Assembly (NCBI GenBank): GCA_964388845.1
Contig: CAYMCD010000004.1
Coordinates: 452 to 64,451, forward strand
Direction of reading: 5' to 3'
DNA length: 64,000 nt
Source of the DNA: an uncultured Verrucomicrobiota bacterium
Lineage (GTDB): Bacteria; Verrucomicrobiota; Kiritimatiellia; CAIVKH01
The notes under the pieces are model-generated. The model was given only the letters and a program-made list of their open reading frames with translations, was not told the DNA's origin and made no database searches. The translations under genes were made by a program, and so were the position numbers. Below are positions 1 to 56,717 of this stretch, piece after piece (the stretch's first letter is position 1; each line of letters begins with the position of its first letter).

Positions 1-101
1 CCATTTTCTACAGTCGGGGTGAGTGGCAAGGTGCAATCGGTATCCGCGGGCGTGAGCTTGTCCGCGCGGAGGGGTGGGTGCGTCGTTGTGAGTGGGGGTT
101 T

Positions 102-150
102 TTACAGACGTTGGAACTCATGACGCGGTGTTATTACAGACGTTGGAAGT
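102..150 (+). repeat. Two direct copies of a conserved AT-rich ~20-bp element (core TTACAGACGTTGGAA at 102-116 and 135-149, 33-bp register) overlapping the 5' end of the giant gene
   Basis: Read directly: tttttACAGACGTTGGAAct (98-119) and atTACAGACGTTGGAAgttc (133-153). The same extended 18-20-mers recur three times at 24504-24566. The element is about 40% GC in a ~68% GC background. Copy 2 lies inside the predicted signal-peptide codons (YYRRWKF) if ATG-120 is the start. Confidence 0.75.
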
Positions 151-3100
151 TCTGCGCGGCGGCTGCCGCTCTCTGGTCGTACCTCTGGGTGACGGATGGG
201 CGAGCGGATGTCTACCTCGGGAAGGATGGCGGTCTCGAGGGCATCGCGACGGTGGACGACAGCACCACCTTCTCCACGGGCCAGTCGAACAAGTGGACCA
301 AGGACAACGCGACGATCACGATTTCGCAGGAAACCGTCAACATCCGGAGCGGCGCGAATGCGCTTCGTGTCCTCAATGCCAGCACGACGGGTCGCCGCAT
401 CCGTTCGCCCTTCAATTCGTTCGGATCCAAGACCACGGGGATCACGATCCAGTATTACCGGATGATCACCAACGTTTCGAATTCCGCCTCCAACCAGGAG
501 GGCGTCGTGCGGAGCTCCACGGAATCGCTCCAGGGCACCTACGACCGGCCTGCGAGCGCCAACAGTTGGGATAAGCAGACCTATTCCCCCGCGAGCGCCA
601 CGTTCACCAGTATCGTCGGAGTGATCCTGTCGCGCGGGCCCACGGCGTCGGGCGGGAACATCTACATTGACGACATGTGCATTTATGACGGTTCCGTTGA
701 CACGACGGCGCCGAACGCGCCGGGGTCCGTCGTGGTGGAGAACGCAACGACCACCTCGCTCGACATACGATGGGGCGCGGCCAGCGGAGGGGTGGACAGC
801 GGCGGTTACTTGGTCGTCCGATACACCGCGAGTCCCGCGGCCAGTGACGATCCGAACGCCAACGGCATTTATGCCAGCAACAACACGTTCACGGTGACGC
901 TGACCGGCACGGTCAGGTATCAGGGGACCGGCACCAACTTCACGGACACGGGTCTCGCGTCCAGCCAGGCCTACTATTACAAGGTCTACACCTACGACAA
1001 GGCCTACAACTATTCGTCCGAATCGTCGGGCAACGGCACGACCTTGTCGTCCTGCACCCCCGTCGGCGCGGTGACCTTTGTCCAGCAGACCAATTACTAC
1101 ACGAAGTACTCAAGCGGCGGCGATATTTTCAACGTGGATGCGGCTCGGATGGGCATGTGGGCCAATTCCGGGAGTGAGCAGGCGGTTGCGTGGCGCGCCT
1201 TCCGCACGGACGGCAGCGGGGGTGGAGAACTGCGCGAATTGCAGCCGGGCGACCGGTTCCGCGTAACGATCAACGGGCCCAACCCGAGCGGTCTGGTGGG
1301 CGTCTCCATCAACGACGGCGCGGCGACGGGATCCTGGGACAATCGAACCAACAATACGCGCGGGTTTATCCAGGTGCAGGGCGGCGGCGCGAACGATTAT
1401 TTCGTCACACACGGCGGCGGAACCCCGGCCTGGTCCGGGGTCAGGCCGAACAGCACGGATCAAACCCTGGTGTTCGACATCCTCTCCAGCGCCGAGTTCA
1501 CGGCGAATATCGAGGGCCAGACGGCCAAATATGACCTGTCCATGCTGAACGGTCCGGGCGACGGCGATCGAGTTGACGGTTTCTCGCTGTTCTTGAACAA
1601 CGACGCCGGGGATATCCACTGGAAGCAGACCACGATGGTCACCAACCTCGGCTACGTCGAGTTGGGCGCGGACAACGGCACGCGCAGCATCGCCGGCAAG
1701 ATCACCGACAGCACGGATCCGGCCTGCACGAACACGGCCGCGCCGAATCTGCTCCGGAAGACCGGAACCGGGACCGTCACCCTGCAGAATACGGCGAACA
1801 CCTACACGATGGGCACGCGGGTCGAGGCGGGCACGCTGGCCGTGTTCAACGACGGCAGCCTCGGCGCGGCGCCCGGCGGCGCGGTGGCGACGAACCTCAA
1901 TATCTGGAGCAGCGGGACCCTGCGGGCGACGAACAGTTTTACGATCAGCGCCAATCGCGGTATCGCCCTCGGCGACGTGAGCGGCCCGGGCATCGAGGTG
2001 GATTCCGGCAAGACGCTGACCTATGCCGGCGCGCTGGGCGGCAACGCGGAATGGAACAAGAAGGGCACGGGCACGCTGGCGCTGACCGGCACGTCGAGCA
2101 CCAACAACGGCAAGGTCGTCATCCAGGGCGGCACGTTGCAGCTCGCGGGCGACGGCAGCCTCGGCGCGGTCCCCGGCGCGGCGTCGGAGAAGATCAACAT
2201 CTGGAGTACGGGCACGCTGGAGGCCAACGCGACGTTCACGCTGAACGCGAACCGACGCATCGAACTCGGCGCCGTGGCCGGACCGAAGATCTCCGTGGCC
2301 GGCGGATATACGCTGACCTACGGCGGACAGATCAGCGGGTCGGCCAATTGGAGCAAGGAGAGCGCGGGCACGCTGGCGCTGACCGGGGCGGTCGGATCCG
2401 CCAGCGGCACGCTGGTGCTCAATGCCGGCACGGTGGCGTTCGACGGCACCAACACCTCGCAGGCCGTGGGCGTGACGGCGTCCGGTTTCCTCTACGGCAA
2501 CGGATCTATCGGCGCGCTGACGATCACCGGCCAGGTCAGCGCGGGCGGCGCGTCGAACACCGTGGGCAATCTCCGGACCACCAGTCTCAATCTCCAGGAC
2601 AACGGCCGGTTGCAGGTGAACTTTTCGGCGATGACCGGCACGGCGGGCACGGATTGGGATGTGATCACCGTCGGCGGCGGATCGGGCACCTACACGGTCA
2701 ACGCGGCTGACGGCTCGGACTTCGTCCTGGCGCTGAAAGGCAACCCGACGTTCAACAACGCGCTGGGCTACACCAACATCATCGCGGACGCCGGCACGGC
2801 GTCCGGCTTCGTCTCCAATAAATTCACCGTCAGCACCGACGAATTCACGCCCGGCCTCGGCGGCGGCGCCTTTGTCGTGGACGCGGCCGGCGGCGACCTG
2901 CGCTTGATCTTCATCCCGTCCGTGGTGGCCGAACCGGACATGGGCGTGCTGGGGACCAACGGCGCGGCCATTTCCAACGGCGATGTCGCGCCCTCGGCGG
3001 CGGACGGAACGGATTTCGGCCAGGTATATGTGTTGGGCGCACGGGCCGTCACAAACGTGTTTGCCATCACCAACGCCGGGACGGCGAATCTGACGCTGTC

Positions 3101-6100
3101 GTCCGTCAGCACCAGCAGCGCGATGGGCGCGGCCGCGGACTTCGCCGTCCTGTCCTGGCCGTCCACGATTTCGCCCGGCGCGAAATCGAACCTCGTCATC
3201 GCGTTCGACCCGTCGGACGTCGGCGTGCGCACGGCCCTCGTCAGCATCGCCAACAACGATACGAACAACAATCCCTACACCTTCGTCCTCGCGGGGGAGG
3301 GCACGGGCGCATATTCGGCCATCACGCTCCAGGGGTTCGAGGGGTCCGCCGCGGACACCTGGACCTACACCCGCGCCGCCGGCGCCGGGGATATCTATGT
3401 GGACGGCGACACAAACGCGGGCGGCGCGTATGCGCTGACCTTCCGCGGCTCGGCGAGCTCAAACTCCGATCCCTATCTCGAGTTCGACACGATTGATCTC
3501 TCCGGATACGGGTCGGTCACGCTGCGCGTGGCCTTCGCGGTCGCCGGCGCGGACAACGGTGACGACCTGGAGCTCGACCTGTCCTATGACGGCGGGACCA
3601 CCTGGAACGGGCCCGGCAGCACGACGCTGGTTTATGGGGCATCGAACACCAATCTCGGGTTTACGGGGACGGGCGCGTCCACCGTGCCGGCCAATCCGTG
3701 GACGGTCGCCCTGCCGTCCACCGCCCAGCAGGTCCGGGTCCGGATCCGCTTCGACGAATCGGCCAACGACAACACCTTCGATCGCTTCTTCGTGGACGAC
3801 ATCGAATTGTCGGGCATGGGCGCAGCGCCGACGGTGGCGCTGGGCGATGTGCTGTACAGCACGTCCGAAACCGACGCGACGGTCACCGTCCCCGTCAGCA
3901 TTTCCGCTTCCTTCTCCGCGACGGTGCAGGTGGCGCTGGCCGGTACGGCGACGGGCGGGGGAACGGACTATTCCGCCAACACCACGAACGTGATTTTCTC
4001 GGCGGGCGGGGCCACCACGTCGAACCTCGTGTTCACGCTCAACAATGACGGCGCCGCGGAGGGGCCGGAGGAAATCGGCGTCACGCTGGTCGCCGCGCGG
4101 GGCGCCAGGGTGGGCGGGCCGGCCGCCGCGACGGTCGTGATCCAGGATGACGACGCCATCACGATCATGTCCGCCAATCTCACGAGCGGAACGAACCTGG
4201 TGGACGGCACCTATTGGTACACCGAGACCAGCCAGCGCATCTTCAAACGCCTCCGGCCCGATGTGGTGGCGATCCAGGAATGGAAGTTCACGAATGCCGG
4301 CGCGCGCGCCTTCGTGGATGCCGTGTTCGGCACGAATTACTATTACTACATCGAGCCGGAGTCCGACCCGAATCCGATCCCCAACGGCGTGATCAGCCGG
4401 TGGCCCATCACGGCGTCGAACGAATGGACCGACACCTATGTCGGGGCGCGCGATCATGCGCAGGTGACGATTGATATCCCCGGGAACCGGGATCTCCACG
4501 TGGTCTCCACGCACTTCAAGGCCGGGCCGGGCGATGCCGCCACGCGCGAAAGCCAGGCCCGGGAACTGACTAACTACATCGCCGGCGCGGCATTTCCGAC
4601 CAATGATTACGTGGTGGTCGCGGGCGACCTGAACCTGACCAACCGGACGGAGACCACTTTCGTCGTGGTCACCAGCGTCGTCACCGACGCGCACCAACCG
4701 GCGGACCGGGACGGCGATCTGAACACGAACCTCGGCCGCTCGGCCCCGTACGACTTTGTGCTGCCCAACCATGTGCTGGACGCCGACCATCTGGCCGTCG
4801 CGGTGGCCGGCGTCTCGTTTGCGAACGGCGTGGTGTTCGATTCGCGCCAGTATAAAGATCATCTCACGCCCATCCTGGTCGAGGACTCCTACGAGGCGAA
4901 CCGCACGCACATGGCGGTCGTCAAGGTCTTCACGATTTCCACGTCGGCCGCGCCGCCGACCGTGACCACGACGATCGCCTCGGCGACCAACCAGACCACG
5001 GCCACGGCGGGCGGCAATGTCACGGACGACGGCGGCGCAAGCGTGACGAATCGCGGCGTGGTGTGGGCGCTGGATCCGGCGACGCCGACCGTGCCCGGCG
5101 CGCAGACGACGAACGGGACGGGCACGGGCAGCTACTCCTCGACGCTGACGAACCTGACGCCCGGCGCGACCTACAACTACCGCGCCTTCGCGCAGAATTC
5201 CGCGGGGACCGGCTACGGCGCGACCAACAGCCTGACGACGCCATGCTTCTCCGGAATCGTTACGGGGCTCGTCGCGAGCGCGACGAACGAGACCGACTTT
5301 ACCGCCGCGTGGAGCAATTTCGCCGGCGCGACGGGGTATTCGCTGGACGTGAGTACGAATGCCACCTTTGGCGGCGCGGGTAGCCCGGATCTGTTCTTCT
5401 CCGAATACGTCGAAGGGAGCAGCAACAACAAGTTCCTTGAAATCTACAACGGCACCGGCGCTTCGGTTGATCTGTCCAATTATAAGGTTCTGCATTTCAA
5501 CAACGGCGCCTCCACGCCGACCTACTCCCTGACCTTGAGCGGGACGCTGTCCGCCGGCGCGGTGTATGTGATCGAAAACAGCTCCGAGTCCCTGGGCGTG
5601 ACCGCGGATTTGTCCACTTCGTCGTCCGTCATGAACTTCAACGGCGACGACGCCATCGCCTTGACCAATACGCTGGCCGGCGGCTATGCGGATGTTATCG
5701 GCCAGATCGGAACCGATCCCGGAACCGAATGGGGGACGGGCAGTGCATCAACGGCGGACAACACCATCCGCCGCATGTCGTCGGTGACCGGCGGTGATAC
5801 CAACGGGGCGAACAGCTTCGATCCCGCGACGGAGTGGGACGGGTATGCCACGGATACTGTTTCCGGGCTGGGATCGCACACCGGGGGTGCATCACCCTCC
5901 TACGTACCCGGCTATTCCAATCGCACCGTTTCCGTGTCCGGCGCGTCCGTGACCGGATTGACCGGCGGCGCGACGTATTACTTCCGGGTGCGCGCGACGA
6001 ACGACTACTGCGCGACGGACAACTCGGCAACGCAGTCGGTGACGACGATTTCGTACGTCCCCGACGTCGCGGCGCTCGGGACGAACCTGGCGGCGATCGT

Positions 6101-9100
6101 CATCAGCAACACGGCGCCGGCGATCGCCAACGGCACGGACTTCGGCTCGATCGGGGTGAATCTGTCCAACCGGATGCACACCTTCACCATCACCAACAGC
6201 GGGACGGCCGCGCTGGGCGTGGGCACGGTGACGACCACCGGCACGCACGCGGCGGACTTCATCGTGGTCAGCCAGCCGGCGGCCTCCATCGCGGCGGGCG
6301 GCAGTTCAACTTTCCAGGTGCAGTTCGACCCAGGCGCGGCGGGGCAACGGGACGCAACGCTGACGTTCACGAACACGGTTTCCGGCAAGACGCCGTATCC
6401 GTTCGCGGCCCGCGGCACGGGTGTTCTGGCCGGAATCGGGTATGGCCCGGCCGCAACGAGCGTCACCGTGATGGTCGGCACGACGCCTTCCGCGGCGGCC
6501 TTCGGCGTGACGAACGTGGGACGCGGGCGCCTGGACTATGCGACATCCACGAACGCGGCCTGGCTGTCGGTGTCGCCGGTGTCGGCGAATCTCAATGAGG
6601 GCGGCGCCCAGGCCCACACGATCAGTTTCAACGTGACCGGTTTGAGCGCCGGGACGAGCAATGCGACGGTGACGATCACGGATGCCGGCGCCTCGAACAG
6701 CCCGCAGACGGTGGCGGTCACATTGATCCTGACGAATATCCCCAATCCGACGGCGGTGTCCGCGTGGGCGCACGGCCGCGAGTTGATCCGGCTCGGCTGG
6801 ACGCGTCCGACCGGGCTCGACGTGATGATCGTGTACCGCGAGACCAACGCGCCCAGCGTGCCCGCGCAGGGGCAGGGCTACAGCATCGGCGATACCTACG
6901 GCGGCGACGGGTCGCGCGTGATCTACAAGGGCAGCGCGGCCCAGTTGGAGCACGTCGTGTTGCCGGGCCGGACCAACCACTACGCGCTCCACGCCATCAA
7001 CAACGACCACTACTCGCCCGGCGTGGCGACGAATATCGCGACGACCGCGTACCCCGCGTCCGAGATCGTCGAGCCGTTCGCCTACACGAATACGGGCACG
7101 CTCGCGACGGGCGGGCACGGCGGCGGCGGGAACGGGTGGACCAACAGCTGGCAGTACGATACCGGAAACTTCAACATCAGCAGCGGCAATTTCGCGAACA
7201 TCTCGGTCTATCCCACGAATGCGGCGAACCGGGTCCGGATCAACAGCGCGGACATTGACGGCACGTCCAAGGCCGCGCGCCGCCACTTCGCGGCCTATAC
7301 GACGGGCAAGGTCTACGCCGCCTACATGCTCAATTACGCCTACAACGGGGCGAACAAATTCGCCGGCCTGTCGTTCATGGACGGCACGAACGAAATGATG
7401 TACTACGGCGAGGATTACAACAGCGACCAGAAGCTGGCCGTCGGCTCCTCCTCCACCGCGACCAACATCTACGCCGGCGTCGGCAACGACTACCTCATTG
7501 TCGGCCTGTACGACTTCACCGCCGACACGGGGTATGGGCTGGTGTACAAGATCGGCACGGACTCGGTTCCCGCGAGCGAGCCGTCCGTGTGGCACGGCTC
7601 GCATTCCAACAACGCGATCGCGCGGATTGACGGCATCCGCATCGCGGCGGGCGCGGGGGGCGGGTCCGGCACGCCGGGCGACACCTATTTCGACGAAATC
7701 CGCGTGGCGACGAGCTGGGAACTGCTGCTGGCCAATTACGCGCAGCCGGAAATAGCGGCGCTCGGCACGAACCTCGCCGTCCTCACGACGGCCAACACGC
7801 CGGATTACGCGAACGGGTCCGATTTCGGGGCGACCGCGGTGACGGGCGGCCAGGTGGACCGCACGTTGTTCATCACGAATTCGGACGCGGGCGCGCTGAA
7901 TGTGTCCGGCCTCTCGACGTCCGGCGCGCAGGCGGCCGACTTCATCGTCGTGTCCTGGCCGGCAAAGGTTTCGCCCGGCGCGGTGTCGAATCTCGTGTTG
8001 CGGTTCGATCCTTTCGCGTCGGGTGTCCGCACCGGCGCGATCACAATTGCCAGCGACGACGCCGACGAGGGCAGCTATGTCTTCCACGTCCGCGGCACGG
8101 GGCAGGTCCCGCCGACCGTCGCCACGACAATCGCCTCCGCGACGAACCAGACCTCCGCGACCGCGGGCGGCAACGTGACCGACGACGGCTACGCGCCGGT
8201 GACGAACCGCGGTGTCGTCTGGAGCGCATCGGCCGGCCCAACCGTGCCGGGCGCGCAGACGACGAACGGGACGGGCACGGGCAGCTACTCCTCGACGCTG
8301 ACGAACCTGACGCCCGGCGCGCCGTACTATTACCGCGCCTTCGCCCAGAACTCCGCGGGCACCGGCTATGGGACGGAATACACATTGACCACCCTCTGCT
8401 TCAGCGGCCTGGTCACCGGCCACTACGTCAGCGCGACCAATGACGTGAACTTCACGGTCGTGTGGAGCAACTTTGCCGACGCCTCGGGCTATGCCCTCGA
8501 CGTATCCAGCAACGCGGGCTTTGCGGTCAACAGCGGCGGCTCCGTCTATACGAACACCTGGGAGGGCGCGTCCAAAGGCGCCTACGCCTCCGGCACGGTC
8601 GTGATCGCCGGGATCACCTGGTGGATGGACGACGCGCTGATCGGCACCAGCGCCAGCGACCGCAAGAACGGGTCCAACGCGGCGCGTGTCCAGAATTCCG
8701 GCGTCATCGGGATGCAGACATCCACCAACATGGGCTTGAGCTCCATCACCCTCCTCCATGGCGTGTATGGATCGGACGGCAACTCCGATGGGCGCGTGGA
8801 GTATTCGACGGATGGCTGGGCCACCTGGTCCACCGCGGGCACGTTCACGGCGACGTCCACCTCCCTGACCGCGTTTGAGGCGACGAACCTGAACGTCAGC
8901 GGCAGCGTGGCGGTGCGCATCGTCAAGACCTCGGGCGGCGGCGACCGCTACAACCTGGACGACATCCTGCTCCATCCGTACAGCCAGGCGCCCTCGTTCG
9001 TGCCCGGCTATTCCAACCGCGCGGTATCCGGAACGAGCGCCTCGGTGACGGGATTGGTGTCCGGCGCGACCTACTACTACCGCATCCGCGCCACGAACGC

Positions 9101-12100
9101 CTATTGCGCGACCGAGAATTCCACGACGGGCTCGGTCACGACTGTCGTTCTGGCCGCCTCGATTGATATCCTGGGCAACGGGGCGCTGATTGTGGATGGC
9201 GACGCGACGCCGTCGCCGACCGACCACACGGACTTCGGCGGGGTGGGGCTGGTGAATTCGAACCTTGTGCGGACCTTCACGATCACGAACGCCGGGCCGG
9301 GCGCGCTCTCCGTATACGGGGTCAGCACCAGTGGCGCGGCGGCAGCCGATTTCATCGTGATTGCGCCGCCCGGCACGCCGGTGAGCGCGGACGCGACCAC
9401 CACGTTCCAGGTCCGTTTCAACCCGACCGCGCTCGGCACGCGCACGGCGACGCTGGCCGTGTCGAACAATGTGACGGGCAAGACGCTGTATGACTTCGTG
9501 GTCCAGGGCACGGGCGTCGCGGCCTCGCTGGTCGTCGCCCCGTCCAGCCTCTCGGTGACCTCGGTGCTGGGCTCGGCGCCGGCCGGCCTCGGGTTCGGTG
9601 TGACGAACAGCGGGCGCGGGGACCTGGTGTACGGCGTGGCCACCAACGTCAACTGGCTCTCCGTCAGCCCGAATGCGGCGACCAACGCCGAGACGGAAGG
9701 GCGCCAGCACACGTTGACCTTCACCGCGCCCGGTTTGCACGCCGGGGTGTCGAATGCGACCATTACGGTCACCGACACGAACGCCGTGGGCAGCCCGCAG
9801 GTGGTGGCCGTTGAATGGACCCTGACGGCCATACCGCCCGTCCTGTCGGCCGGCGTGACGAACGACGGCAACGAACTGGTTCGGATCGGCTGGACGAAGG
9901 ACTCCGGCTACGACGTGATGATCGTGCACAATCGCACCAACCCGCCCTCCGCGCCGGCGAACGGCACGTCCTACAGCGTGGGCGGGGCCGTGGGTTCCGA
10001 CGGTTCGCGCGTGATTTACAGCGGCGGAGGCGCGGAGCTGCAGCACGTCGTGGCGCCCGGCAGCGACAACTACTACGCCTTCTATTCGGTGAACAACAAT
10101 CACTACTCGACGCCTTTGTCCACCAACACGACGACGGGCGCCTATGCCGCCGGCGAAATCGTCGAGCCGTTTGCCTACACCAGCGGCGTGACCATGATCT
10201 CGCGCCAGGGCGGAAACGGCTGGGGGGCCAACTTCTGGACCGGCGACACCAACGCCTTCTCCGTCAGCAATTTGAGCTTCGCCGCGCAGACGAACTATCC
10301 GACCCCGCGCGCGAACAAGCTCGCGGTCACGCCCCAGGATGGCGGCAGCAACACGATCCGTCGCCAGTTCACCAACACCTATGCGAGCGGGCGGCTTTAC
10401 GTCGGGTATATCGTCAACTTCCAGTACAGCGGCGCCGACAAGTACGCCGGACTGTCCCTGATGTCCAACACCACCGAGCGCCTGTTCGTGGGCGAGGTTT
10501 CCACCGCCGACCTGCGGCTCGGCCTCGACGGCAGCTCGTCGAATCGCGTCCTCAACAACGGGGCGGGCAACGATTACATCGTGGTGATGCGCTACGACTG
10601 GAGTTCCGGCCTCGCGGCGGCCAGCGCGTACAAGGTCGGCACGGATGCCGTGCCCGACAGCGAGCCGACCGCGTGGGACATGATGTTGAGCAAGGCGAGC
10701 AATGCCGTCGGGCGGATCAACGGGCTCCGGCTCGTGGCGGGCACGACGGGGTCCGGCACGCCGGGGACGACGTATTTCGACGAGATCCGCGTGGCGACCA
10801 ACTGGAGCGAGTTGATCCAGATGCTGCCCAGCCGGGTCATCTATGACGGCTTCGCATCCTCCAGCGGCGCGCTTTCCGGGGGCGGCGGCGGGACGGGCTG
10901 GTCCGACACGTGGGCGATCGGCGGCGATCCCTTTGCGGACTACACAGCCACCTCGTTCGGGATCGAGAAGTCCAGCTATTACCAGCCGACCGGGAACAAG
11001 ATCGTCCTGTATGGCGATGTGAACGGGCGCTGGATCACGGCCAGCCGGACCTTCCTGGAGCCGTTCACAAACGGCGCCGTCTATTTCTCCTGGATGATGA
11101 ACTACGAGTTCAACGGCACGGACAAATACGCGGGGCTCAAGCTGCTCGATGGCGGTTCCGAGAAGGCCTTCGTCGGCAAGGTGTCGGGCGCGGACAAGGC
11201 CCTCGGCATTGATTCCAGTTCGAGCAACCAGACCTCCACCAACGACATCGAAAACGCTTCGGGCAACGATTACGTCGTCGTCGCGAAATACGACTTCGCG
11301 ACCCGCGTGCTCAGCGCGACGACGTACCGCACGATAACCAACGCGGTCGCGGAGGAACCCAACGGCTACTGGCTGGTCACCACGACGCAGGGCGTCGGGC
11401 ACATCACCAGCTTGACGGGCGTCCGCCTCTCCATCGGCGCCGGCGCGAGCGTGCAGGTGGGCGATGTTTATTACGACGAAGTCCGCGTGGGCACCAACTG
11501 GTTCGAGGTCACCCGCAAGGACGGCGAGGCCCAGGCCCCGGCGATGGCGAACGGACCGACGCCGCGCCTGCTGTACGTCGGCACGAACTACAATCCGGCG
11601 CTCAACCCGCAGGGCATCCTGAACGACATCACCGTCACGGACGCGGACCTGATCAACACCGCCGATCCGCTGGATATCGCGATCCTGTGGAGCAACTCGT
11701 ACGGCGTGTTCATGACCAACGCGAGCCCGGCGATCAAGAACATCAGCTCCCGCCTGGGCCGCGTGACGCCGAACTACGATCCGGTCGTGCTGACCGGGAG
11801 TCAATTCCAGTCCACCGGCGCGGACGCCTCGTTCACCAATTTCGCGGGCAACAACGGCTCAACGGTGGTGACGACCTACCAGCACCGGGCGTTCAACATC
11901 ACCAACTCCACGTACGACGACGCGTACTACATCACCGTCAGCGCGGAGAACAACAACCTGGGCGGCGGGACGTTTGCCGCGCCGAACGCGGGCGACGCGA
12001 TCCCGTACTGGCGCGCGCTCACCGTGAACACCGCGCTGCAGTTCTACGTCCAGGACGACGACATCAGCTATCCGGAATTGCTCGAATTCACGATAGACGG

Positions 12101-15100
12101 GGTGGGCGGCTCGGGCGTCTCGAACCTGTCCGCCGGCGGGATCGCGGTCATCGGCGTGAACGGCACCGCGACGGGCGATCTGGAGCGGTTCTCCTTTGTC
12201 GTGCTGGCGCCGTTCCCCGCCGGCACCGTGATTGAGTTCACGGACTGCGGCTGGGATCCGACCGACCTGAGCGGCACGGGCGACTGGCACCGGGTCACGG
12301 AATTTCACACGAACAAATGGGTCGCCACCGGCAATATTGACGTCGGACGCGTGATCGAGCTGACCCTGAACGACATCAACAACGGCGGCGACCAGGTGAC
12401 GATTTTCCAATATTACGGGGCCACCACGGCGTCGAACGATTCCGAAAACGTGAATTTCGTCTACGCCGTGAACCTGGGTCCGCGCTGGTACGATCCGCCG
12501 GGCGATCCCATCCCCGACGACAACCAAAGCTCCGCCCTCTACCGCGGGTTGACCAACGGCACGACGGCCGTCAGCGTGCCGCTGGACTACGGCGTGGCCA
12601 ACGCCCGCTACATCGGCCCAATGACCGGCACCGCCTCCTACCTGCTGCTCCAGATCAGCGACTCGAACAACTGGGAATCGCTCGCGACCGGCTACCACGA
12701 CATCACGAATTACAGCTTCGAGGTGACCGGCGCGGGCGCCTTCGATTGGAACACGCCGGAGCTGTCCGACGCGCAGGTGCTGGCGGGCGGCTTCATGGTG
12801 ACCAACATCCTGCGCGACCTCGACAGCGGCGTGCTGGCCTCCAACACCTCGTTCGGGCACGCCCCGTATTTCATGCTGTTCAACACAAACGACCAGGTCG
12901 TGGTCTCGAACCTCTTCGTCGTGAGTTTCACGAACGGGACGAGGACGGTCATCACCAACGCGAACAACACCTTCTCCGGACAGTACGATCGCATCACGAT
13001 CGGGATGGGCGAGGCCCTGGTCGCCTGGTCCGACGCGGACGGCGATCGTTCCCTGGACACCTTGATGACAACGAGCCGCGTGCCCGTGCTCATCTTCGAC
13101 GACGACCCGGACGAACCCGTCGCCGGGGCCATGACCCTGTTGAACGGGTCGAACACCGTCACTGAGCAGGCGGGACCGGTCCAGCTGCTTGCGGCGTGGA
13201 ATTTCAACGCCAGCAACACCACGGCCACGTCCGGTTCCGGCACGTGGAGCGACAACCTGCTGACCGCGCCGACCTACGGAAATGCGGGAACCACCATCAA
13301 CGCCGTCTCCGGCGATACGGCGGGCGCCGACATCACGATCACCGCCGGAAGCGGACTGCAGAACAACGGCCGCTACATCCAGTTCCTGCTCAACATGTCC
13401 GGCAGCGAAGGCCTCGTGATGACGTACTCCGCGCGCCGGTCCGGGACCGGCTTCACCACCAACCTGGTCGCCTATTCGACCGACGGGGTGTCGTTCACGC
13501 CGTTCGCGACGAATACGCCGACCCAGGACAGCCACGCCCTGCGTTCCAACGACTTCGGCGCTGTGACCGCGCTGGACGACCAGGGCGCGGTATACATCCG
13601 CATCACGCTGGACGGCGCCACCGCCACCGCGGGCAACAACCGGTTCGACAATTTCCAGTTCAACGCGTTGCGACGGGTCTTCACCCTCACGGACGGCGCG
13701 CTCGCCCTCGTGGCCTCCACCAATCCGCTCTCGTTCAGCTTCAGCGTCTACGACGAGACCAGCGGCGTGGCGCGCGGAACGTCGTCCGACGGGACCAACA
13801 TGAATGTTTCAATTCCCGGCATGGCGACAAACAACACCACGAATTATGCCGCGTCCGCCAGCAGCGCCGGTACGCTCGCGCCCTCGTCCACCAGCCTGTG
13901 GCAGTTCACCTCCTTCACGTACGCGCAGATCGGCGATCTCTATGGAGGCGGGACGAACCTGATCCCCGTCACGGCGAATATCAGCGATCTCGACAACGAT
14001 CGCCTGGACGATCGCCTGCAGCTCACGAACCGTTCGTACGGCACCTTCTTTGTGACCGATGACGACACCAACACGCCGGTTGTCGCGAATGTAAACCTGT
14101 CCGGCGCGTCCGCCGCGCCGTTCGTGGTCGCCACGAACGGCGTCGCGCCGACGAATCTGATCCGCAATTTCATCGCGCGGCGGACCGGCTCGGGAACGGA
14201 CACCCTGACGACCGTCACGGACCAGGAGCTGGCCGATGCGACCAACATCCAGTTCCAGTTCGTCTTCGGCGTCCGCGACGCCCATTCCGGCGTTTCCCGC
14301 GGGGTCTCGGGGACGACCAACGAGGTGATGAGCTTCAGTCTGGGCACCAATATCACGGGCAATTTCACGGACTACAGCGCCGCGCTCTCCACGCCGCAGG
14401 CCACGACCAATCTCCTCCTCACGAACTACTGGACCTTCGGCAATTTCGACAGCGCCGCGATCAATGCCCTGATGGCCTCCACCGGAAATCCCGTACACAT
14501 CACCATGCCCGACCTCGACGACGACCGTCCGTCCGACCGGGCCACCGACTACAGCCGCCTGGTCGGCTACGTGCGCGTCGTGGACGACGACATCCGCGGG
14601 CCGATCATCAATTCGGCGGATATCGCGGGCGCCTACGGAACAAATGTGACGATGTATTCCAGTTTCGAGACCAACCAGAACTGGCCCGCGTCCTCGCTCG
14701 GCAGCGGGACGCCGTGGACCAACGATGCCACGACGGGCCGGTGGATCGCGGATGGGGCGACGTTTGGCGCGCTGGACCCCAAGATCTCCGGCACGCGTCG
14801 CATCGGCCTGCTCACCAATTCGCTCGCGGAGCCGCGTTGGATCCAGCTTCCGCCCATCGCCGATCCCGGCACGCTCGTGCTGTTCGCGGGCCGGTTCAGC
14901 GGAAACGATGTCACCCTGCGGGTCGAACGCGCGGACGGCGCCAGCTGGATCAGCGTCGGCAGCCGGGTCGTCACCAACCTGAATCCGGAATTCGAGCTGT
15001 TCTCCTGGGATATCAACGTCACCGGCGTGACGACGCTCCGCGTCGTGCACGCGGGGACCGGTCCGCAGGTCTACATGGACGATATCAGCGTCTACCCGCA

Positions 15101-16910
15101 GGCCATCTGGATCAGCACGAATTCGCTTACCATGAGCTGGGAGGAGGCGCTGGACGACTTCTCCACGGTCGCCGAATACCGGGTCGTGGCGCCGGCCCAG
15201 TCCGCGGCGCAGCCCGCGACGACCAACGACGGGACGGGGTTGTCCGCCTCGGTGCGGACGAACTCCTTCAATATCACGGGGCAGCAGGGCGTGTTGACGG
15301 GGTATCTCTTCGCCGTGGACAACGACGCGGACCGGGGCCACGACCAGGCCATCGGGAATTTGCAGAAACTCGTGGTCCGCGTGGACACCAATCCGCCGCC
15401 GGTTCCCACCGCGCTGCGCGCGACGGATGCCGCGGCCGGGTATCTCTTCGGCAGCATTGACGAATCGTCCGAGATCCTCGTCCAGTGGACTCCGCCGGGG
15501 ACGAACGCGTCGCAGTCGGCCGGGTGGCGGCAGTCGGACAGCGAGGCGCTGTCGCCGTGGGAGACCTACATCATCACGTATTATGAGGTGGTGGACACCA
15601 ACGGCACGCCGGCCGCGAACGCGGTCACGCAGGTCCTCACGCGGGCGACCGCAGGCTGGTCGAACGCATTGTCCAGCTACGCATTCACCAACCTGTTGCT
15701 CTCCAACCTGACGTTCGATTCCTACTACAAGATCACCGTCCAGGGCCGGGACGAGGCCGGGAATATCGGCCTGTCCACCAGTGTCGTGGGCAACACGGAT
15801 CGCTTTGTGGTCACACAGGGGCTCGCCCGGGCGAACATGGGCCTTTCCGTCCGGTGGACCGGCCCCACGAACGAGACGACCTATCGCGATTACGATGTCA
15901 TTTTCGTGGACAGTTCGGTCGGCTTCCACGCCTCGCTGACGAACAGCTGGGACTGGCTGACCTACACCAACCGGCCGCGGCTGGAGGACTACGGGGGAAC
16001 CAACCGCGTCGCGCCGGGTTGGCTGACGGGCACAACGTACCGGATGTACCGCGTGGCGCGGGAGGATCGCTGGCGGACCAACCAATCGCCGCGCCTGGCC
16101 AGCGTCGAAATCTACGCGGCCAAGGCCCTGCGCCTGCATCCGGGCGAGAACTGGTATTCACTGTTCTCCTGGCCCGACCCCGCGACGACCAATGAGCAGG
16201 AAAGCACCGTCGCCTACGTGTTCGGCACCAACACGCTGCACGCGAGCAACACCTATGCGCAGTCCACGCGCATTTCCTGGTTCGGCGCCACCACCGGCGC
16301 GACCAATATCGGGACGGTGGCCACCTCGATCGTCTGGCTGTCTTCGTCGGCGGGCTGGCAATACGCGCTCGGGGGATCCGGCGCGGCGAATGAGAAGCGC
16401 GTGCCGCTGGGGCAGGGGTTCATGATCGAGGTGCCGACCAATGCCGCGGCGACCAACCTGGTGCTGATCGGGCGGCTGCCGACGCAGTCGCTGTCGCGCG
16501 TGATCTCAGCGCCGGTTTCCACCAACATCCCGGAGTTCCATGTGCTGAGCCACCAGATGCCGGAACGCATCACGGTGTCGAACTTCGTCAGCCAGTTCAG
16601 CGGCTTCGGCGCCGGGCCGTTCGCGAACTACGCGGACGAGATTCGCATACTCGACAACAGCCAGACCAATGGCGTAGCGATGGGTTCGCTGCGCTCGCCG
16701 CGGATGCGCATCTGGTACAGTTCGATCGCCGCGCATTCGAACGCCCCGTGGCGGCGCGCGACAACAGGATCGCCGGCAAATAATCCGTCGGCGATGGGCG
16801 AGATTATCGAGCCGGACGACGCCATCATCATCGTCCGCCGCAAGTCGGGAACCGTGACGTTCGTCAACACGCCCACGTATCCGCCGCCGACCCGGAACAT
16901 CACGCCATGA
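120..16910 (+). CDS. Giant secreted multidomain protein (about 5600 aa): PATR repeats, MAM-like modules, Calx-beta, EEP domain, LTD, FN3/Ig-like modules
   Basis: ORF 78-16910 is uninterrupted. ATG-120 gives a textbook signal peptide (MTRCYYRRWKF-CAAAAALWSYLWV-TDGRA); GTG-189 is an alternative start. Domains recognised by eye: FN3-like (~700-1020); PATR repeats GTGTLALTG/GTLxAxxxFT (~1750-2800); MAM-like modules (FEG..W..SYDGGTTW..FFVDDIELS; ~3300-3820 and ~8520-8990); Calx-beta-like ending ATVVIQDDDAITI (~3840-4150); EEP domain (~4150-4935; VVAIQEW, SRWPI, HVVSTHF, VVAGDLN, YDFVLPN); LTD (~5388-5690; LFFSEYVEGSSNNKFLEIYNGTG...DDAIAL); and three ~225-aa tandem modules ending YFDEIRVAT(S/N)W. 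No PEP-CTERM, LPXTG or TM anchor at the C-terminus. Confidence 0.9.
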   Translation: MTRCYYRRWKFCAAAAALWSYLWVTDGRADVYLGKDGGLEGIATVDDSTTFSTGQSNKWTKDNATITISQETVNIRSGANALRVLNASTTGRRIRSPFNSFGSKTTGITIQYYRMITNVSNSASNQEGVVRSSTESLQGTYDRPASANSWDKQTYSPASATFTSIVGVILSRGPTASGGNIYIDDMCIYDGSVDTTAPNAPGSVVVENATTTSLDIRWGAASGGVDSGGYLVVRYTASPAASDDPNANGIYASNNTFTVTLTGTVRYQGTGTNFTDTGLASSQAYYYKVYTYDKAYNYSSESSGNGTTLSSCTPVGAVTFVQQTNYYTKYSSGGDIFNVDAARMGMWANSGSEQAVAWRAFRTDGSGGGELRELQPGDRFRVTINGPNPSGLVGVSINDGAATGSWDNRTNNTRGFIQVQGGGANDYFVTHGGGTPAWSGVRPNSTDQTLVFDILSSAEFTANIEGQTAKYDLSMLNGPGDGDRVDGFSLFLNNDAGDIHWKQTTMVTNLGYVELGADNGTRSIAGKITDSTDPACTNTAAPNLLRKTGTGTVTLQNTANTYTMGTRVEAGTLAVFNDGSLGAAPGGAVATNLNIWSSGTLRATNSFTISANRGIALGDVSGPGIEVDSGKTLTYAGALGGNAEWNKKGTGTLALTGTSSTNNGKVVIQGGTLQLAGDGSLGAVPGAASEKINIWSTGTLEANATFTLNANRRIELGAVAGPKISVAGGYTLTYGGQISGSANWSKESAGTLALTGAVGSASGTLVLNAGTVAFDGTNTSQAVGVTASGFLYGNGSIGALTITGQVSAGGASNTVGNLRTTSLNLQDNGRLQVNFSAMTGTAGTDWDVITVGGGSGTYTVNAADGSDFVLALKGNPTFNNALGYTNIIADAGTASGFVSNKFTVSTDEFTPGLGGGAFVVDAAGGDLRLIFIPSVVAEPDMGVLGTNGAAISNGDVAPSAADGTDFGQVYVLGARAVTNVFAITNAGTANLTLSSVSTSSAMGAAADFAVLSWPSTISPGAKSNLVIAFDPSDVGVRTALVSIANNDTNNNPYTFVLAGEGTGAYSAITLQGFEGSAADTWTYTRAAGAGDIYVDGDTNAGGAYALTFRGSASSNSDPYLEFDTIDLSGYGSVTLRVAFAVAGADNGDDLELDLSYDGGTTWNGPGSTTLVYGASNTNLGFTGTGASTVPANPWTVALPSTAQQVRVRIRFDESANDNTFDRFFVDDIELSGMGAAPTVALGDVLYSTSETDATVTVPVSISASFSATVQVALAGTATGGGTDYSANTTNVIFSAGGATTSNLVFTLNNDGAAEGPEEIGVTLVAARGARVGGPAAATVVIQDDDAITIMSANLTSGTNLVDGTYWYTETSQRIFKRLRPDVVAIQEWKFTNAGARAFVDAVFGTNYYYYIEPESDPNPIPNGVISRWPITASNEWTDTYVGARDHAQVTIDIPGNRDLHVVSTHFKAGPGDAATRESQARELTNYIAGAAFPTNDYVVVAGDLNLTNRTETTFVVVTSVVTDAHQPADRDGDLNTNLGRSAPYDFVLPNHVLDADHLAVAVAGVSFANGVVFDSRQYKDHLTPILVEDSYEANRTHMAVVKVFTISTSAAPPTVTTTIASATNQTTATAGGNVTDDGGASVTNRGVVWALDPATPTVPGAQTTNGTGTGSYSSTLTNLTPGATYNYRAFAQNSAGTGYGATNSLTTPCFSGIVTGLVASATNETDFTAAWSNFAGATGYSLDVSTNATFGGAGSPDLFFSEYVEGSSNNKFLEIYNGTGASVDLSNYKVLHFNNGASTPTYSLTLSGTLSAGAVYVIENSSESLGVTADLSTSSSVMNFNGDDAIALTNTLAGGYADVIGQIGTDPGTEWGTGSASTADNTIRRMSSVTGGDTNGANSFDPATEWDGYATDTVSGLGSHTGGASPSYVPGYSNRTVSVSGASVTGLTGGATYYFRVRATNDYCATDNSATQSVTTISYVPDVAALGTNLAAIVISNTAPAIANGTDFGSIGVNLSNRMHTFTITNSGTAALGVGTVTTTGTHAADFIVVSQPAASIAAGGSSTFQVQFDPGAAGQRDATLTFTNTVSGKTPYPFAARGTGVLAGIGYGPAATSVTVMVGTTPSAAAFGVTNVGRGRLDYATSTNAAWLSVSPVSANLNEGGAQAHTISFNVTGLSAGTSNATVTITDAGASNSPQTVAVTLILTNIPNPTAVSAWAHGRELIRLGWTRPTGLDVMIVYRETNAPSVPAQGQGYSIGDTYGGDGSRVIYKGSAAQLEHVVLPGRTNHYALHAINNDHYSPGVATNIATTAYPASEIVEPFAYTNTGTLATGGHGGGGNGWTNSWQYDTGNFNISSGNFANISVYPTNAANRVRINSADIDGTSKAARRHFAAYTTGKVYAAYMLNYAYNGANKFAGLSFMDGTNEMMYYGEDYNSDQKLAVGSSSTATNIYAGVGNDYLIVGLYDFTADTGYGLVYKIGTDSVPASEPSVWHGSHSNNAIARIDGIRIAAGAGGGSGTPGDTYFDEIRVATSWELLLANYAQPEIAALGTNLAVLTTANTPDYANGSDFGATAVTGGQVDRTLFITNSDAGALNVSGLSTSGAQAADFIVVSWPAKVSPGAVSNLVLRFDPFASGVRTGAITIASDDADEGSYVFHVRGTGQVPPTVATTIASATNQTSATAGGNVTDDGYAPVTNRGVVWSASAGPTVPGAQTTNGTGTGSYSSTLTNLTPGAPYYYRAFAQNSAGTGYGTEYTLTTLCFSGLVTGHYVSATNDVNFTVVWSNFADASGYALDVSSNAGFAVNSGGSVYTNTWEGASKGAYASGTVVIAGITWWMDDALIGTSASDRKNGSNAARVQNSGVIGMQTSTNMGLSSITLLHGVYGSDGNSDGRVEYSTDGWATWSTAGTFTATSTSLTAFEATNLNVSGSVAVRIVKTSGGGDRYNLDDILLHPYSQAPSFVPGYSNRAVSGTSASVTGLVSGATYYYRIRATNAYCATENSTTGSVTTVVLAASIDILGNGALIVDGDATPSPTDHTDFGGVGLVNSNLVRTFTITNAGPGALSVYGVSTSGAAAADFIVIAPPGTPVSADATTTFQVRFNPTALGTRTATLAVSNNVTGKTLYDFVVQGTGVAASLVVAPSSLSVTSVLGSAPAGLGFGVTNSGRGDLVYGVATNVNWLSVSPNAATNAETEGRQHTLTFTAPGLHAGVSNATITVTDTNAVGSPQVVAVEWTLTAIPPVLSAGVTNDGNELVRIGWTKDSGYDVMIVHNRTNPPSAPANGTSYSVGGAVGSDGSRVIYSGGGAELQHVVAPGSDNYYAFYSVNNNHYSTPLSTNTTTGAYAAGEIVEPFAYTSGVTMISRQGGNGWGANFWTGDTNAFSVSNLSFAAQTNYPTPRANKLAVTPQDGGSNTIRRQFTNTYASGRLYVGYIVNFQYSGADKYAGLSLMSNTTERLFVGEVSTADLRLGLDGSSSNRVLNNGAGNDYIVVMRYDWSSGLAAASAYKVGTDAVPDSEPTAWDMMLSKASNAVGRINGLRLVAGTTGSGTPGTTYFDEIRVATNWSELIQMLPSRVIYDGFASSSGALSGGGGGTGWSDTWAIGGDPFADYTATSFGIEKSSYYQPTGNKIVLYGDVNGRWITASRTFLEPFTNGAVYFSWMMNYEFNGTDKYAGLKLLDGGSEKAFVGKVSGADKALGIDSSSSNQTSTNDIENASGNDYVVVAKYDFATRVLSATTYRTITNAVAEEPNGYWLVTTTQGVGHITSLTGVRLSIGAGASVQVGDVYYDEVRVGTNWFEVTRKDGEAQAPAMANGPTPRLLYVGTNYNPALNPQGILNDITVTDADLINTADPLDIAILWSNSYGVFMTNASPAIKNISSRLGRVTPNYDPVVLTGSQFQSTGADASFTNFAGNNGSTVVTTYQHRAFNITNSTYDDAYYITVSAENNNLGGGTFAAPNAGDAIPYWRALTVNTALQFYVQDDDISYPELLEFTIDGVGGSGVSNLSAGGIAVIGVNGTATGDLERFSFVVLAPFPAGTVIEFTDCGWDPTDLSGTGDWHRVTEFHTNKWVATGNIDVGRVIELTLNDINNGGDQVTIFQYYGATTASNDSENVNFVYAVNLGPRWYDPPGDPIPDDNQSSALYRGLTNGTTAVSVPLDYGVANARYIGPMTGTASYLLLQISDSNNWESLATGYHDITNYSFEVTGAGAFDWNTPELSDAQVLAGGFMVTNILRDLDSGVLASNTSFGHAPYFMLFNTNDQVVVSNLFVVSFTNGTRTVITNANNTFSGQYDRITIGMGEALVAWSDADGDRSLDTLMTTSRVPVLIFDDDPDEPVAGAMTLLNGSNTVTEQAGPVQLLAAWNFNASNTTATSGSGTWSDNLLTAPTYGNAGTTINAVSGDTAGADITITAGSGLQNNGRYIQFLLNMSGSEGLVMTYSARRSGTGFTTNLVAYSTDGVSFTPFATNTPTQDSHALRSNDFGAVTALDDQGAVYIRITLDGATATAGNNRFDNFQFNALRRVFTLTDGALALVASTNPLSFSFSVYDETSGVARGTSSDGTNMNVSIPGMATNNTTNYAASASSAGTLAPSSTSLWQFTSFTYAQIGDLYGGGTNLIPVTANISDLDNDRLDDRLQLTNRSYGTFFVTDDDTNTPVVANVNLSGASAAPFVVATNGVAPTNLIRNFIARRTGSGTDTLTTVTDQELADATNIQFQFVFGVRDAHSGVSRGVSGTTNEVMSFSLGTNITGNFTDYSAALSTPQATTNLLLTNYWTFGNFDSAAINALMASTGNPVHITMPDLDDDRPSDRATDYSRLVGYVRVVDDDIRGPIINSADIAGAYGTNVTMYSSFETNQNWPASSLGSGTPWTNDATTGRWIADGATFGALDPKISGTRRIGLLTNSLAEPRWIQLPPIADPGTLVLFAGRFSGNDVTLRVERADGASWISVGSRVVTNLNPEFELFSWDINVTGVTTLRVVHAGTGPQVYMDDISVYPQAIWISTNSLTMSWEEALDDFSTVAEYRVVAPAQSAAQPATTNDGTGLSASVRTNSFNITGQQGVLTGYLFAVDNDADRGHDQAIGNLQKLVVRVDTNPPPVPTALRATDAAAGYLFGSIDESSEILVQWTPPGTNASQSAGWRQSDSEALSPWETYIITYYEVVDTNGTPAANAVTQVLTRATAGWSNALSSYAFTNLLLSNLTFDSYYKITVQGRDEAGNIGLSTSVVGNTDRFVVTQGLARANMGLSVRWTGPTNETTYRDYDVIFVDSSVGFHASLTNSWDWLTYTNRPRLEDYGGTNRVAPGWLTGTTYRMYRVAREDRWRTNQSPRLASVEIYAAKALRLHPGENWYSLFSWPDPATTNEQESTVAYVFGTNTLHASNTYAQSTRISWFGATTGATNIGTVATSIVWLSSSAGWQYALGGSGAANEKRVPLGQGFMIEVPTNAAATNLVLIGRLPTQSLSRVISAPVSTNIPEFHVLSHQMPERITVSNFVSQFSGFGAGPFANYADEIRILDNSQTNGVAMGSLRSPRMRIWYSSIAAHSNAPWRRATTGSPANNPSAMGEIIEPDDAIIIVRRKSGTVTFVNTPTYPPPTRNITP
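4930..10815 (+). repeat. Intragenic segmental duplication: unit A ~4930-7740 is repeated as unit B ~8100-10815, offset ~3.1-3.2 kb
   Basis: Protein level: PPTVTTTIASATNQTTATAGGNVTDDG...AFAQNSAGTGYG (4930-5350) versus PPTVATTIASATNQTSATAGGNVTDDG...AFAQNSAGTGYG (8100-8520); PSYVPGYSNRTVSVSGASVTGL... (5880-) versus PSFVPGYSNRAVSGTSASVTGL... (8995-); EIVEPFAYTNTG... (7060-7735) versus EIVEPFAYTSGV... (10156-10820). A stretch of more than 60 nt is identical at 5102-5170 and 8258-8326 (cgcagacgacgaacgggacgggcacgggcagctactcctcgacgctgacgaacctgacgcccggcgcg). Unit A carries the LTD (5388-5690); unit B has a MAM-like insert at that position (8520-8990). Confidence 0.85.
10156..11510 (+). repeat. Tandem pair of ~675-nt modules (10156-10820 and 10836-11510), homologous to 7060-7735; each encodes a ~225-aa domain starting NGW and ending YFDE(I/V)RV(A/G)T(N/S)W
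   Basis: Three aligned protein segments read from the ORF: GGHGGGGNGWTNSWQYDTGNFNISSGNF...; QGGNGWGANFWTGDTNAFSVSNLSF...; GGGGTGWSDTWAIGGDPFADYTATSFGI.... All share the internal motif NG(A/T)(N/D)K(F/Y)AGL(S/K)(F/L)(M/L)D. Confidence 0.8.
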
Positions 16911-51575: not shown

Positions 51576-54056
<2,481 letters not shown>

Positions 54057-54185
54057 AGGGGGAGGGGAGTTGGGAGAAAGGAACTATACTACTGAGCAAT
54101 GATGAGTTGACCGATTCTCATGGCGGCTTGGTGTAAGGAATCGGGAAGGGGGAGCCGGTCCTCTATTCCAACTCCTGTCACCCCG

Positions 54186-56717
<2,532 letters not shown>

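Follow-up and report, generated by a model that had tools for sequence, protein, structure and literature searches.

A probable EEP-fold phosphodiesterase paired with a bacterial lamin-tail unit inside a giant Verrucomicrobiota protein

Introduction

The combination of a lamin-tail domain (LTD) with a domain of the endonuclease/exonuclease/phosphatase (EEP) fold is known from the secreted nucleases ExeM and Xds. ExeM from Shewanella oneidensis consists of a signal peptide, an LTD (residues 28–128), a YhcR-like OB region, an EEP domain (residues 464–830) and a GlyGly-CTERM segment; its DNase activity needs the OB and EEP parts, while the LTD is dispensable (PMC6085458). Xds from Vibrio cholerae is organised in the same way, and neither its activity nor its association with the membrane requires the LTD (PMC6746945). 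Rv0888 from Mycobacterium tuberculosis is an EEP protein with nuclease and sphingomyelinase activity, in which the classical Asp-His pair is D472-H473 (PMC4733049). Here we describe a giant protein encoded by an uncultured Verrucomicrobiota bacterium (GenBank assembly GCA_964388845.1, contig CAYMCD010000004.1, positions 452 to 64,451 of the forward strand; this whole stretch of 64,000 nucleotides is referred to as the window), which contains an EEP domain, two FN3-like domains and an LTD unit in this order. Giant surface proteins of the Planctomycetota-Verrucomicrobiota-Chlamydiota (PVC) group are already known: proteins of at least 5,000 residues occur often in Verrucomicrobiota, Planctomycetota and Omnitrophota, where a role in adhesion or in attack on other cells is assumed, and the survey that describes them makes no mention of nuclease, exonuclease or lamin-tail domains, nor of an EEP-FN3-FN3-LTD cassette (bioRxiv 10.1101/2023.11.21.568195).

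We consider it rather likely that the protein described here is a giant, secreted, β-rich multidomain PVC protein with a catalytic cassette inside. The cassette would comprise a metal-dependent EEP-fold phosphodiesterase, two FN3-like spacers and a bacterial lamin-tail unit, the last of which would most likely serve as a binding or targeting module.

Results

An EEP domain in a giant open reading frame

Positions 78–16910 of the window (forward strand) form one intact open reading frame (ORF) of 5,610 codons. The GC content at third codon positions is 0.88 over the full length of the ORF, which matches the expectation for a real gene in surrounding DNA of ~66% GC. Thr, Gly, Ala, Ser and Asn are abundant in the encoded protein, which has an acidic isoelectric point (pI) of 4.5. 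A scan of one genome per species yielded 532 EEP relatives, the best 80 of which were analysed as L-numbered loci; orthologues of the giant ORF are found in L001, L002 and L003, with 58–70% identity across aa 949–1773. The host is a PVC-group, Verrucomicrobiota/Kiritimatiellia-like bacterium. Read by eye, the basic and then hydrophobic stretch after the probable start codon resembles a Sec signal peptide, and we infer that the protein is secreted. The ORF and the elements of the cassette are as follows.

78..16910, forward strand: giant ORF; probable start ATG at nt 120, then the signal-peptide-like segment MTRCYYRRWKFCAAAAALWSYLWVTDGRA
4155..4934, forward strand: EEP domain, aa 1360–1619, Pfam PF03372
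4176–4178, 4278–4280, 4512–4514 and 4626–4628, forward strand: codons of the catalytic positions N1367, E1401, H1479 and D1517
4632–4634, 4752–4754 and 4908–4910, forward strand: codons of the catalytic positions N1519, D1559 and H1611
4905–4907, forward strand: codon of T1610, at the canonical Asp position
4950..5372, forward strand: two FN3-like spacer domains, aa ~1625–1765, from the EEP domain to the LTD; fn3 scores 26 bits when scanned as a piece
5382..5705, forward strand: lamin-tail domain core, aa 1769–1876, Pfam PF00932 (LTD)
5706..5957, forward strand: conserved extension at the C-terminal end of the bacterial LTD unit, aa 1877–1960, with the motifs GQIGTDPGTEWG, TADNTIRR and FDPATEW

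A first-pass annotation of the window, made from the letters and their translations, had placed an EEP domain and an LTD in this ORF. Both assignments were borne out, as PF03372 and PF00932 score above their cut-offs and the structure models agree. Specifically, PF03372 (Exo_endo_phos) matches aa 1387–1522 with 35–37 bits against a cut-off of 24.5 (E 3.5e-9, profile positions 24–159 of 225), and the modelled structure is a four-layer α/β sandwich, as in the DNase I-like fold. The domain holds seven of the eight canonical catalytic residues, namely N1367, E1401, H1479, D1517, N1519, D1559 and H1611, as mapped via the family alignment and motif equivalence rather than superposed coordinates. These seven positions are conserved in 81–82 of 82 family sequences, comprising the giant EEP, its paralogue in the window and the 80 genomic relatives. 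R1441, R1458, R1554 and R1590 are likewise invariant in the family. At the position preceding the last His, the giant protein has Thr (T1610); 68 of the 82 sequences have Gln there and only 2 have Asp, and the giant-protein clade has Ala or Thr. The motifs quoted in the first-pass annotation each occur once at their assigned place, and VVAIQEW, HVVSTHF and VVAGDLN carry the right residues. The His of YDFVLPNH is not the catalytic His; only the Asp of this motif is conserved, and the terminal catalytic His is H1611 in RTHMAVV.

The EEP domain is 73% identical to that of the L001 orthologue, compared with 68% for the enclosing 825-residue block, so the domain is at least as constrained as its neighbours and is not decaying. 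It is the sole recognisable catalytic domain of the giant protein. Judged from these sequence features, the EEP domain is real and probably catalytic, and its activity is inferred rather than observed. By analogy with the superfamily, E1401 together with N1367 would hold Mg2+ or Ca2+, H1611, oriented by D1559, would activate the attacking water, and the scissile phosphate would be bound and stabilised by H1479, D1517 and N1519. In place of the usual metal-site Asp directly before the last His, this protein has Thr and most of the family has Gln.

The bacterial lamin-tail unit

The Pfam LTD profile matches the core with 56–62 bits (cut-off 34.3), and the structure model is an Ig-like β-sandwich similar to the lamin tail. 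The conserved unit exceeds the Pfam domain and spans ~180 residues including the C-terminal extension; it is modelled confidently until ~aa 1935 and is 47–72% identical to 88 stand-alone homologues from many phyla. Core and extension together align to positions 11–200 of the ExeM model NF033680 with 101.8 bits. A profile of the unit gave no match at E<=1 against the sequences of the PDB. The strong conservation suggests a universal ligand; literature searches revealed no established LTD ligand.

The stand-alone relatives have LTD as their sole recorded Pfam domain, sometimes together with PEP-CTERM or Big_5, and include proteins from Anaerolineae, Gaiellaceae, Paenibacillus, Patescibacteria and Pyrinomonadaceae. 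Many of them carry the label 'predicted extracellular nuclease' in one source, which was probably transferred from COG2374/ExeM. Since these proteins bear a nuclease label without any nuclease domain, the presence of an LTD should not count as a sign of nuclease function in annotation.

Recurrence of the EEP-LTD cassette

A single collinear BLAST alignment over aa 1339–1960, covering the EEP domain, both FN3 domains and the LTD unit, was obtained for four proteins from different metagenome-assembled genomes (MAGs), with identities of 45% (L022), 44% (L008), 39% (L025) and 35% (L024). When the 640 aa past each EEP domain were scanned with Pfam, an LTD turned up in 10 of 75 relatives, making it the commonest domain at this place after generic fn3. 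An LTD above the Pfam cut-off was confirmed in L022, L006, L016 and L072, and the cultured myxobacterium Hyalangium versicolor has a compact EEP+LTD protein of 675 aa. The four collinear cassettes, the 10 of 75 relatives, the Hyalangium protein and the Pfam-confirmed LTDs make the pairing meaningful; it is recurrent and not accidental.

Two home-made LTD hidden Markov models (HMMs) were dropped. One, iterated and including the extension, reported 19 of 80 loci, which was inconsistent with the narrow model; the other, restricted to the core, reported 6 of 80 and missed the Pfam-positive Hyalangium LTD. The figure from the Pfam scan was adopted in place of both.

The 2,442-aa Verrucomicrobiota protein at L022:6578-13903 (forward strand) contains a subtilase (Peptidase_S8, 151 bits), a PPC domain, the EEP-FN3-FN3-LTD cassette and MBG domains, so that a protease and a phosphodiesterase share a single giant secreted scaffold.

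Domain scaffold around the cassette

The giant protein was rescanned with Pfam and NCBIfam as 640-aa pieces. An fn3 domain is found at aa 214–312, and the following domains precede the cassette.

1752..1844, forward strand: PATR, autotransporter-associated β-strand repeat, aa 559–589, with a second repeat after it; PF12951, 32–35 bits against a cut-off of 27
3009..3281, forward strand: choice-of-anchor-D / HYDIN-type Ig-like domain, aa 978–1068; NF012200 with 142.7 bits, PF22544
3306..3827, forward strand: jelly-roll domain, aa ~1077–1250; the "MAM" of the first-pass annotation, not confirmed
3828..4151, forward strand: Calx-beta, aa 1251–1358, directly upstream of the EEP domain; PF03160, 38–39 bits against a cut-off of 27

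The scaffold had been described as PATR/Calx-beta/MAM. PATR and Calx-beta do score above their cut-offs, and TIGR02601 likewise matches the two PATR repeats with 34 bits (cut-off 19.85), while MAM PF00629 was never matched, not even on the isolated jelly-roll piece at E<=1. The jelly-roll region gave only Reelin_subrepeat-B at 16–20 bits, under the cut-off of 27, and no match among PDB sequences; it is 43% identical to aa 1018–1203 of the second EEP protein of the window. The block conserved with L001–L003 begins at the choice-of-anchor-D Ig-like domain. Calx-beta reaches 38.9 bits (E 1e-9) in a 284-aa or 640-aa piece and was missed by hmmscan with a 3,000-aa query (window 78–9077). The Pfam EEP match was likewise missing, at the reporting threshold of 1e-4, for the long ORFs of L006, L016 and L072. 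Domain censuses of giant proteins therefore require tiling of the query.

Beyond the LTD, Pfam and NCBIfam identify more Ig, BACON and FN3 modules, and part of this region is duplicated. Specifically, the ~620 residues past the LTD occur twice (aa 1934–2551 and 2966–3580, window 5880–7730 and 8976–10820) with 45–50% identity, each copy being composed of Ig (choice-of-anchor D), BACON and LamG-like parts, and the FN3 pair before the LTD has a second copy at aa 2701–2815 with 76% identity. The LamG-like part, with its recurring end motif YFDEIRVATxW, also occurs in a third but incomplete copy (aa 3404–3581 and 3631–3813). These internal repeats were found by segment-versus-segment BLAST, as a BLAST of the giant protein against itself gave the identity match only. 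In the first copy, the slot between the duplicated stretches is occupied by the LTD, and in the second by a β-rich segment that is unrelated to it. In this the LTD behaves like an exchangeable binding module carried by a repetitive scaffold.

The last ~2,200 residues (aa ~3440–5610, window 10400–16907) gave zero Pfam or NCBIfam matches and may be the place of secretion or anchoring determinants. Parts of this region are conserved in L001 with 27–37% identity.

Size and distribution of the EEP subfamily

A homology search with aa 1339–1648 returned 85 proteins, the best of which are 47–50% identical, with E values down to 6e-76. When an EEP profile was run against 1.84 billion representatives, it collected 634 clusters at E<=1e-30, a number that rose to 929 at E<=1e-10, giving a subfamily size of ~630–930 clusters at 50% identity. 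The best 80 of the 532 relatives are overwhelmingly from MAGs of Verrucomicrobiota, Kiritimatiellia and Lentisphaerae and from Myxococcota (Archangium, Hyalangium, Sorangium and Pyxidicoccus). Many members are small enzymes of 250–550 aa, secreted or lipoprotein-like: small secreted forms occur in Myxococcota and PVC bacteria, and the domain is an embedded module in PVC giant proteins. In PVC genomes it often lies within very large ORFs, such as those of L001 (>5,012 aa), L004 (>5,902 aa) and L014 (>5,438 aa). The most specific name given to any member across the sources is 'endonuclease/exonuclease/phosphatase family protein', and NCBIfam has no model specific for this subfamily.

The genes around small homologues were inspected in Archangium, Hyalangium, a Verrucomicrobia MAG and a MAG labelled Akkermansia, and they offered no consistent hint of function. 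The small homologue of Archangium minus at L079:7047-8420 (reverse strand) consists of an EEP and a PPC domain, and ~1.4 kb away lies a divergent gene for a PF04185 phosphoesterase of the phospholipase C/acid phosphatase family (L079:9782-11473, forward strand). This gene pair hints weakly at a role connected with phosphate or lipids; the other neighbourhoods inspected did not show it.

Genomic context, a second EEP protein and localisation

The gene downstream of the giant ORF (16907–17776) overlaps its stop codon via ATGA and encodes a bacterial TSP3-repeat protein; behind it lie the gene of a TPR membrane protein, sucCD and a gene for an aldehyde dehydrogenase. An Rfam search of the whole window gave no matches. 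The further features of the window are listed below.

24585–46000, reverse strand: exosortase-type exopolysaccharide (EPS) locus, starting at ~24.5 kb
26964–28373, reverse strand: Bac_transf priming transferase, EPS locus
28386–29264, reverse strand: EpsI-like DUF3485 protein, EPS locus
29147–30127, reverse strand: exosortase EpsH, EPS locus
33927–35144, reverse strand: GT9 enzyme, EPS locus, where GT4 enzymes are also present
42613–45969, reverse strand: 1,118-aa protein with two tandem GT4 modules, EPS locus
56940..62495, forward strand: second EEP protein, large and secreted, 1,851 aa; its jelly-roll, Calx-beta and EEP form a cassette paralogous to that of the giant protein; EEP at aa ~1381–1650

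Pfam gave no match for the large ORFs of the EPS locus at 24585–26960, 31214–32842, 35030–37186 and 39784–41388. The region that separates the EPS locus from the second EEP protein holds the adjacent housekeeping genes gyrB (54186–56684) and gyrA (51576–54056), which together cover window 51576–56684 on the reverse strand and would be suitable markers for a phylogenetic placement. The giant gene had been described as standing next to an EPS locus; such a locus is present in the same window, ~8 kb downstream on the opposite strand and behind sucCD and the aldehyde dehydrogenase gene, and nothing was found that connects it with the giant gene.

The second EEP protein has Pfam matches to DUF11, four Calx-beta domains and Exo_endo_phos, and also contains CARDB and several jelly-rolls. 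It is 43–45% identical to aa 1080–1620 of the giant protein and 49% over the EEP domain, with the family-typical QH motif. Its C-terminus (window 62000–62492) shares an arrangement with the product of 16907–17776 and with the proteins P0013, P0018, P0024, P0038 and P0055, namely a TSP3-like acidic repeat (D-x-D-x-D-G...) followed by a β-domain of ~90 aa ending in ...YRV/FRV. The same ending closes many small EEP homologues. It scores 22.5 bits against the Amuc_1099 pilus-like family, below the threshold of 50, and might represent a PVC domain for sorting or attachment that has so far escaped recognition.

The giant protein had been pictured as tethered to the cell surface; no anchor, sorting signal or transmembrane segment of a recognisable kind was found. 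In its C-terminal 2,200 aa, Pfam and NCBIfam gave no match to PEP-CTERM, LPXTG, the C-terminal domain of the type IX secretion system (T9SS CTD) or an autotransporter barrel, and a hydropathy scan (Kyte-Doolittle, 19-residue window, mean >1.6) showed no transmembrane-like segment past the signal peptide. The picture of a tethered matrix-remodelling enzyme is thus speculation. The domain calls themselves are correct far beyond chance.

Discussion

Candidate substrates

The substrate of the predicted phosphodiesterase would most likely be an extracellular phosphodiester polymer, with DNA or RNA as the leading candidate because fusions of this type of EEP domain with the LTD unit found at the head of the ExeM/Xds nucleases occur repeatedly. 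We therefore name nucleic acid as the substrate tentatively; a lipid phosphodiester appears unlikely and another phosphoester rather improbable, and what probability remains falls to an inactive EEP domain or an unknown substrate.

Several observations weigh against a catalytic EEP-LTD cassette directed at nucleic acid. The canonical Asp ahead of the catalytic His is missing from the giant EEP, and literature searches gave no characterised member of the EEP subfamily and none with tested activity. The closest orthologues, L001–L003, are without an LTD: they share the Ig, jelly-roll, Calx-beta, EEP and FN3-FN3 block with 58–70% identity, and the similarity ends exactly at the LTD start. As the second EEP protein of the window has no LTD either, the pairing is not obligatory. 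Conversely, the top 120 LTD relatives (P0233–P0352) are small stand-alone proteins, none with an EEP domain. With a pI of 4.05 and 2 Lys+Arg among its 108 residues, the LTD core is strongly acidic, an uncommon property for a domain that binds DNA directly. ExeM and Xds can do without their LTD, which has no known role in them, and the OB-fold that is essential there is absent here (PMC6085458, PMC6746945). Since the LTD is dispensable for nuclease activity, it does not identify the substrate, and since its role is unknown even in characterised nucleases, it is weak evidence for a DNA substrate.

Alternative explanations

The EEP domain could act on lipids, like sphingomyelinase or phospholipase C, or on both lipids and nucleic acid like Rv0888, whose EEP domain is both nuclease and sphingomyelinase (PMC4733049); the giant protein would then attack the membranes of prey, competitors or a host. 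The nearest solved structures by sequence are indeed the sphingomyelinases C of B. cereus, Listeria and Streptomyces and S. aureus beta-toxin (E 1.6e-4 with the single sequence, 3e-8 with a family profile), and the sole enzyme-specific NCBIfam match is the sphingomyelin phosphodiesterase model TIGR03395. Furthermore, the EEP family is common in predatory Myxococcota, and the Archangium homologue adjoins the PF04185 phosphoesterase gene. However, the alignment to the sphingomyelinase structures covers just ~90 central residues, the similarity is limited to the central His and GDxN motifs common to the whole superfamily, and TIGR03395 reaches 19.8–22 bits, in the central motif only, against an equivalog threshold of 248; the repeated fusion to an ExeM-type LTD, moreover, points to nucleic acid. 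We judge this explanation unlikely.

A wider conjecture takes EEP-FN3-FN3-LTD as a self-contained, horizontally shuffled 'warhead' built on an uncharacterised (Q/T/A)-His EEP clade. PVC bacteria would mount it on fibres of several thousand residues, sometimes beside a subtilase as in L022, and in predatory myxobacteria it would serve as a small secreted enzyme; in either case it would process or attack the surfaces of other cells. Its substrate would possibly not be DNA but a membrane phospho- or sphingolipid or phosphodiester-linked surface glycans, and the highly conserved, acidic LTD unit would recognise a universal ligand. We regard this conjecture as quite unlikely.

The EEP domain might instead be a phosphatase or phosphodiesterase for another substrate, either phosphomonoesters, for phosphate scavenging, or phosphodiester-linked matrix glycans, the latter corresponding to the matrix remodelling proposed in the first-pass annotation. 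Its neighbouring domains (Calx-beta, BACON and jelly-rolls) are carbohydrate-binding-like, and an exosortase/EPS locus lies within the same window. However, the EEP domain has no specific similarity to phosphatase clades, the EPS genes are ~8 kb off on the opposite strand behind unrelated metabolic genes, and the conserved block of the relatives comes without EPS genes in the stretches examined, which leaves this explanation rather improbable.

It is very improbable that the EEP domain is a catalytically dead binding module, as the Thr-His at the place of the Asp-His dyad and the Ala or Thr of the giant-protein clade (Asp in only 2 of 82) might suggest. The retention of the seven other catalytic positions in 81–82 of 82 sequences, in a family of >600 clusters, is the pattern of an active enzyme, and in an alanine scan of nine conserved residues of Rv0888 only H353, D387 and D438 were reported as catalytic, a set that does not include the D472/H473 pair (PMC4733049).

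Membership or orthology of the giant protein in ExeM/Xds/NucH can practically be dismissed: it has an LTD and an EEP domain in one secreted protein, and NF033680 matches its LTD unit, yet the model scores 101.8 bits against a cut-off of 1300 over positions 11–200 of 884 and leaves the EEP unmatched, the domain order is reversed, no OB-fold family was matched by Pfam on the 640-aa pieces, and no GlyGly-CTERM/rhombosortase signal is found at the C-terminus, which reads ...TFVNTPTYPPPTRNITP.

Implications

If the secreted cassette is an active nuclease or phosphodiesterase, PVC bacteria would display degradative enzymes on giant extracellular scaffolds, not as small soluble proteins. This would bear on the turnover of extracellular DNA and phosphorus and on cell-cell interactions in the poorly cultured Verrucomicrobiota and Kiritimatiellia. 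Two uncharacterised families are flagged by the analysis, namely the EEP subfamily of >600 clusters with its non-canonical terminal motif and the very conserved bacterial LTD unit.

Comparison with known systems

The giant protein resembles ExeM, Xds and NucH (COG2374, NF033680) in combining a bacterial LTD unit and an EEP-fold phosphodiesterase in one secreted protein, and it plausibly works like an extracellular LTD-associated phosphodiesterase. The ExeM/NucH-type label of the first-pass annotation suits the LTD unit (102 bits with NF033680) and not the enzyme. ExeM and Xds have the order signal peptide, LTD, OB-fold, EEP (~370 aa) and GlyGly-CTERM, whereas the giant protein has EEP (~260 aa), FN3, FN3 and LTD in the middle of 5,610 aa. 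The nearest relatives of its LTD unit are stand-alone bacterial LTD proteins of 200–350 aa, some with PEP-CTERM; these have no enzyme domain, whereas the unit here lies inside a giant protein downstream of an EEP domain.

Among other EEP enzymes, sphingomyelinase C and S. aureus beta-toxin (TIGR03395; PDB 2ddr, 7cne, 1zwx and 3i5v) align with the giant EEP over the central region described above. They end in the motif DH and are single-domain toxins, whereas the giant EEP family has (Q/T)H and the giant EEP is a module of a much larger protein. Rv0888 and the actinobacterial EEP protein 4ruw are compared with the giant EEP at the superfamily level; Rv0888 retains the D472-H473 pair and differs in its N-terminal domain, and its dual activity shows promiscuity to be possible in this part of the superfamily. 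As a whole, the giant protein fits the class of large PVC surface proteins in its size, its β-rich repeats and its embedded hydrolase domain.

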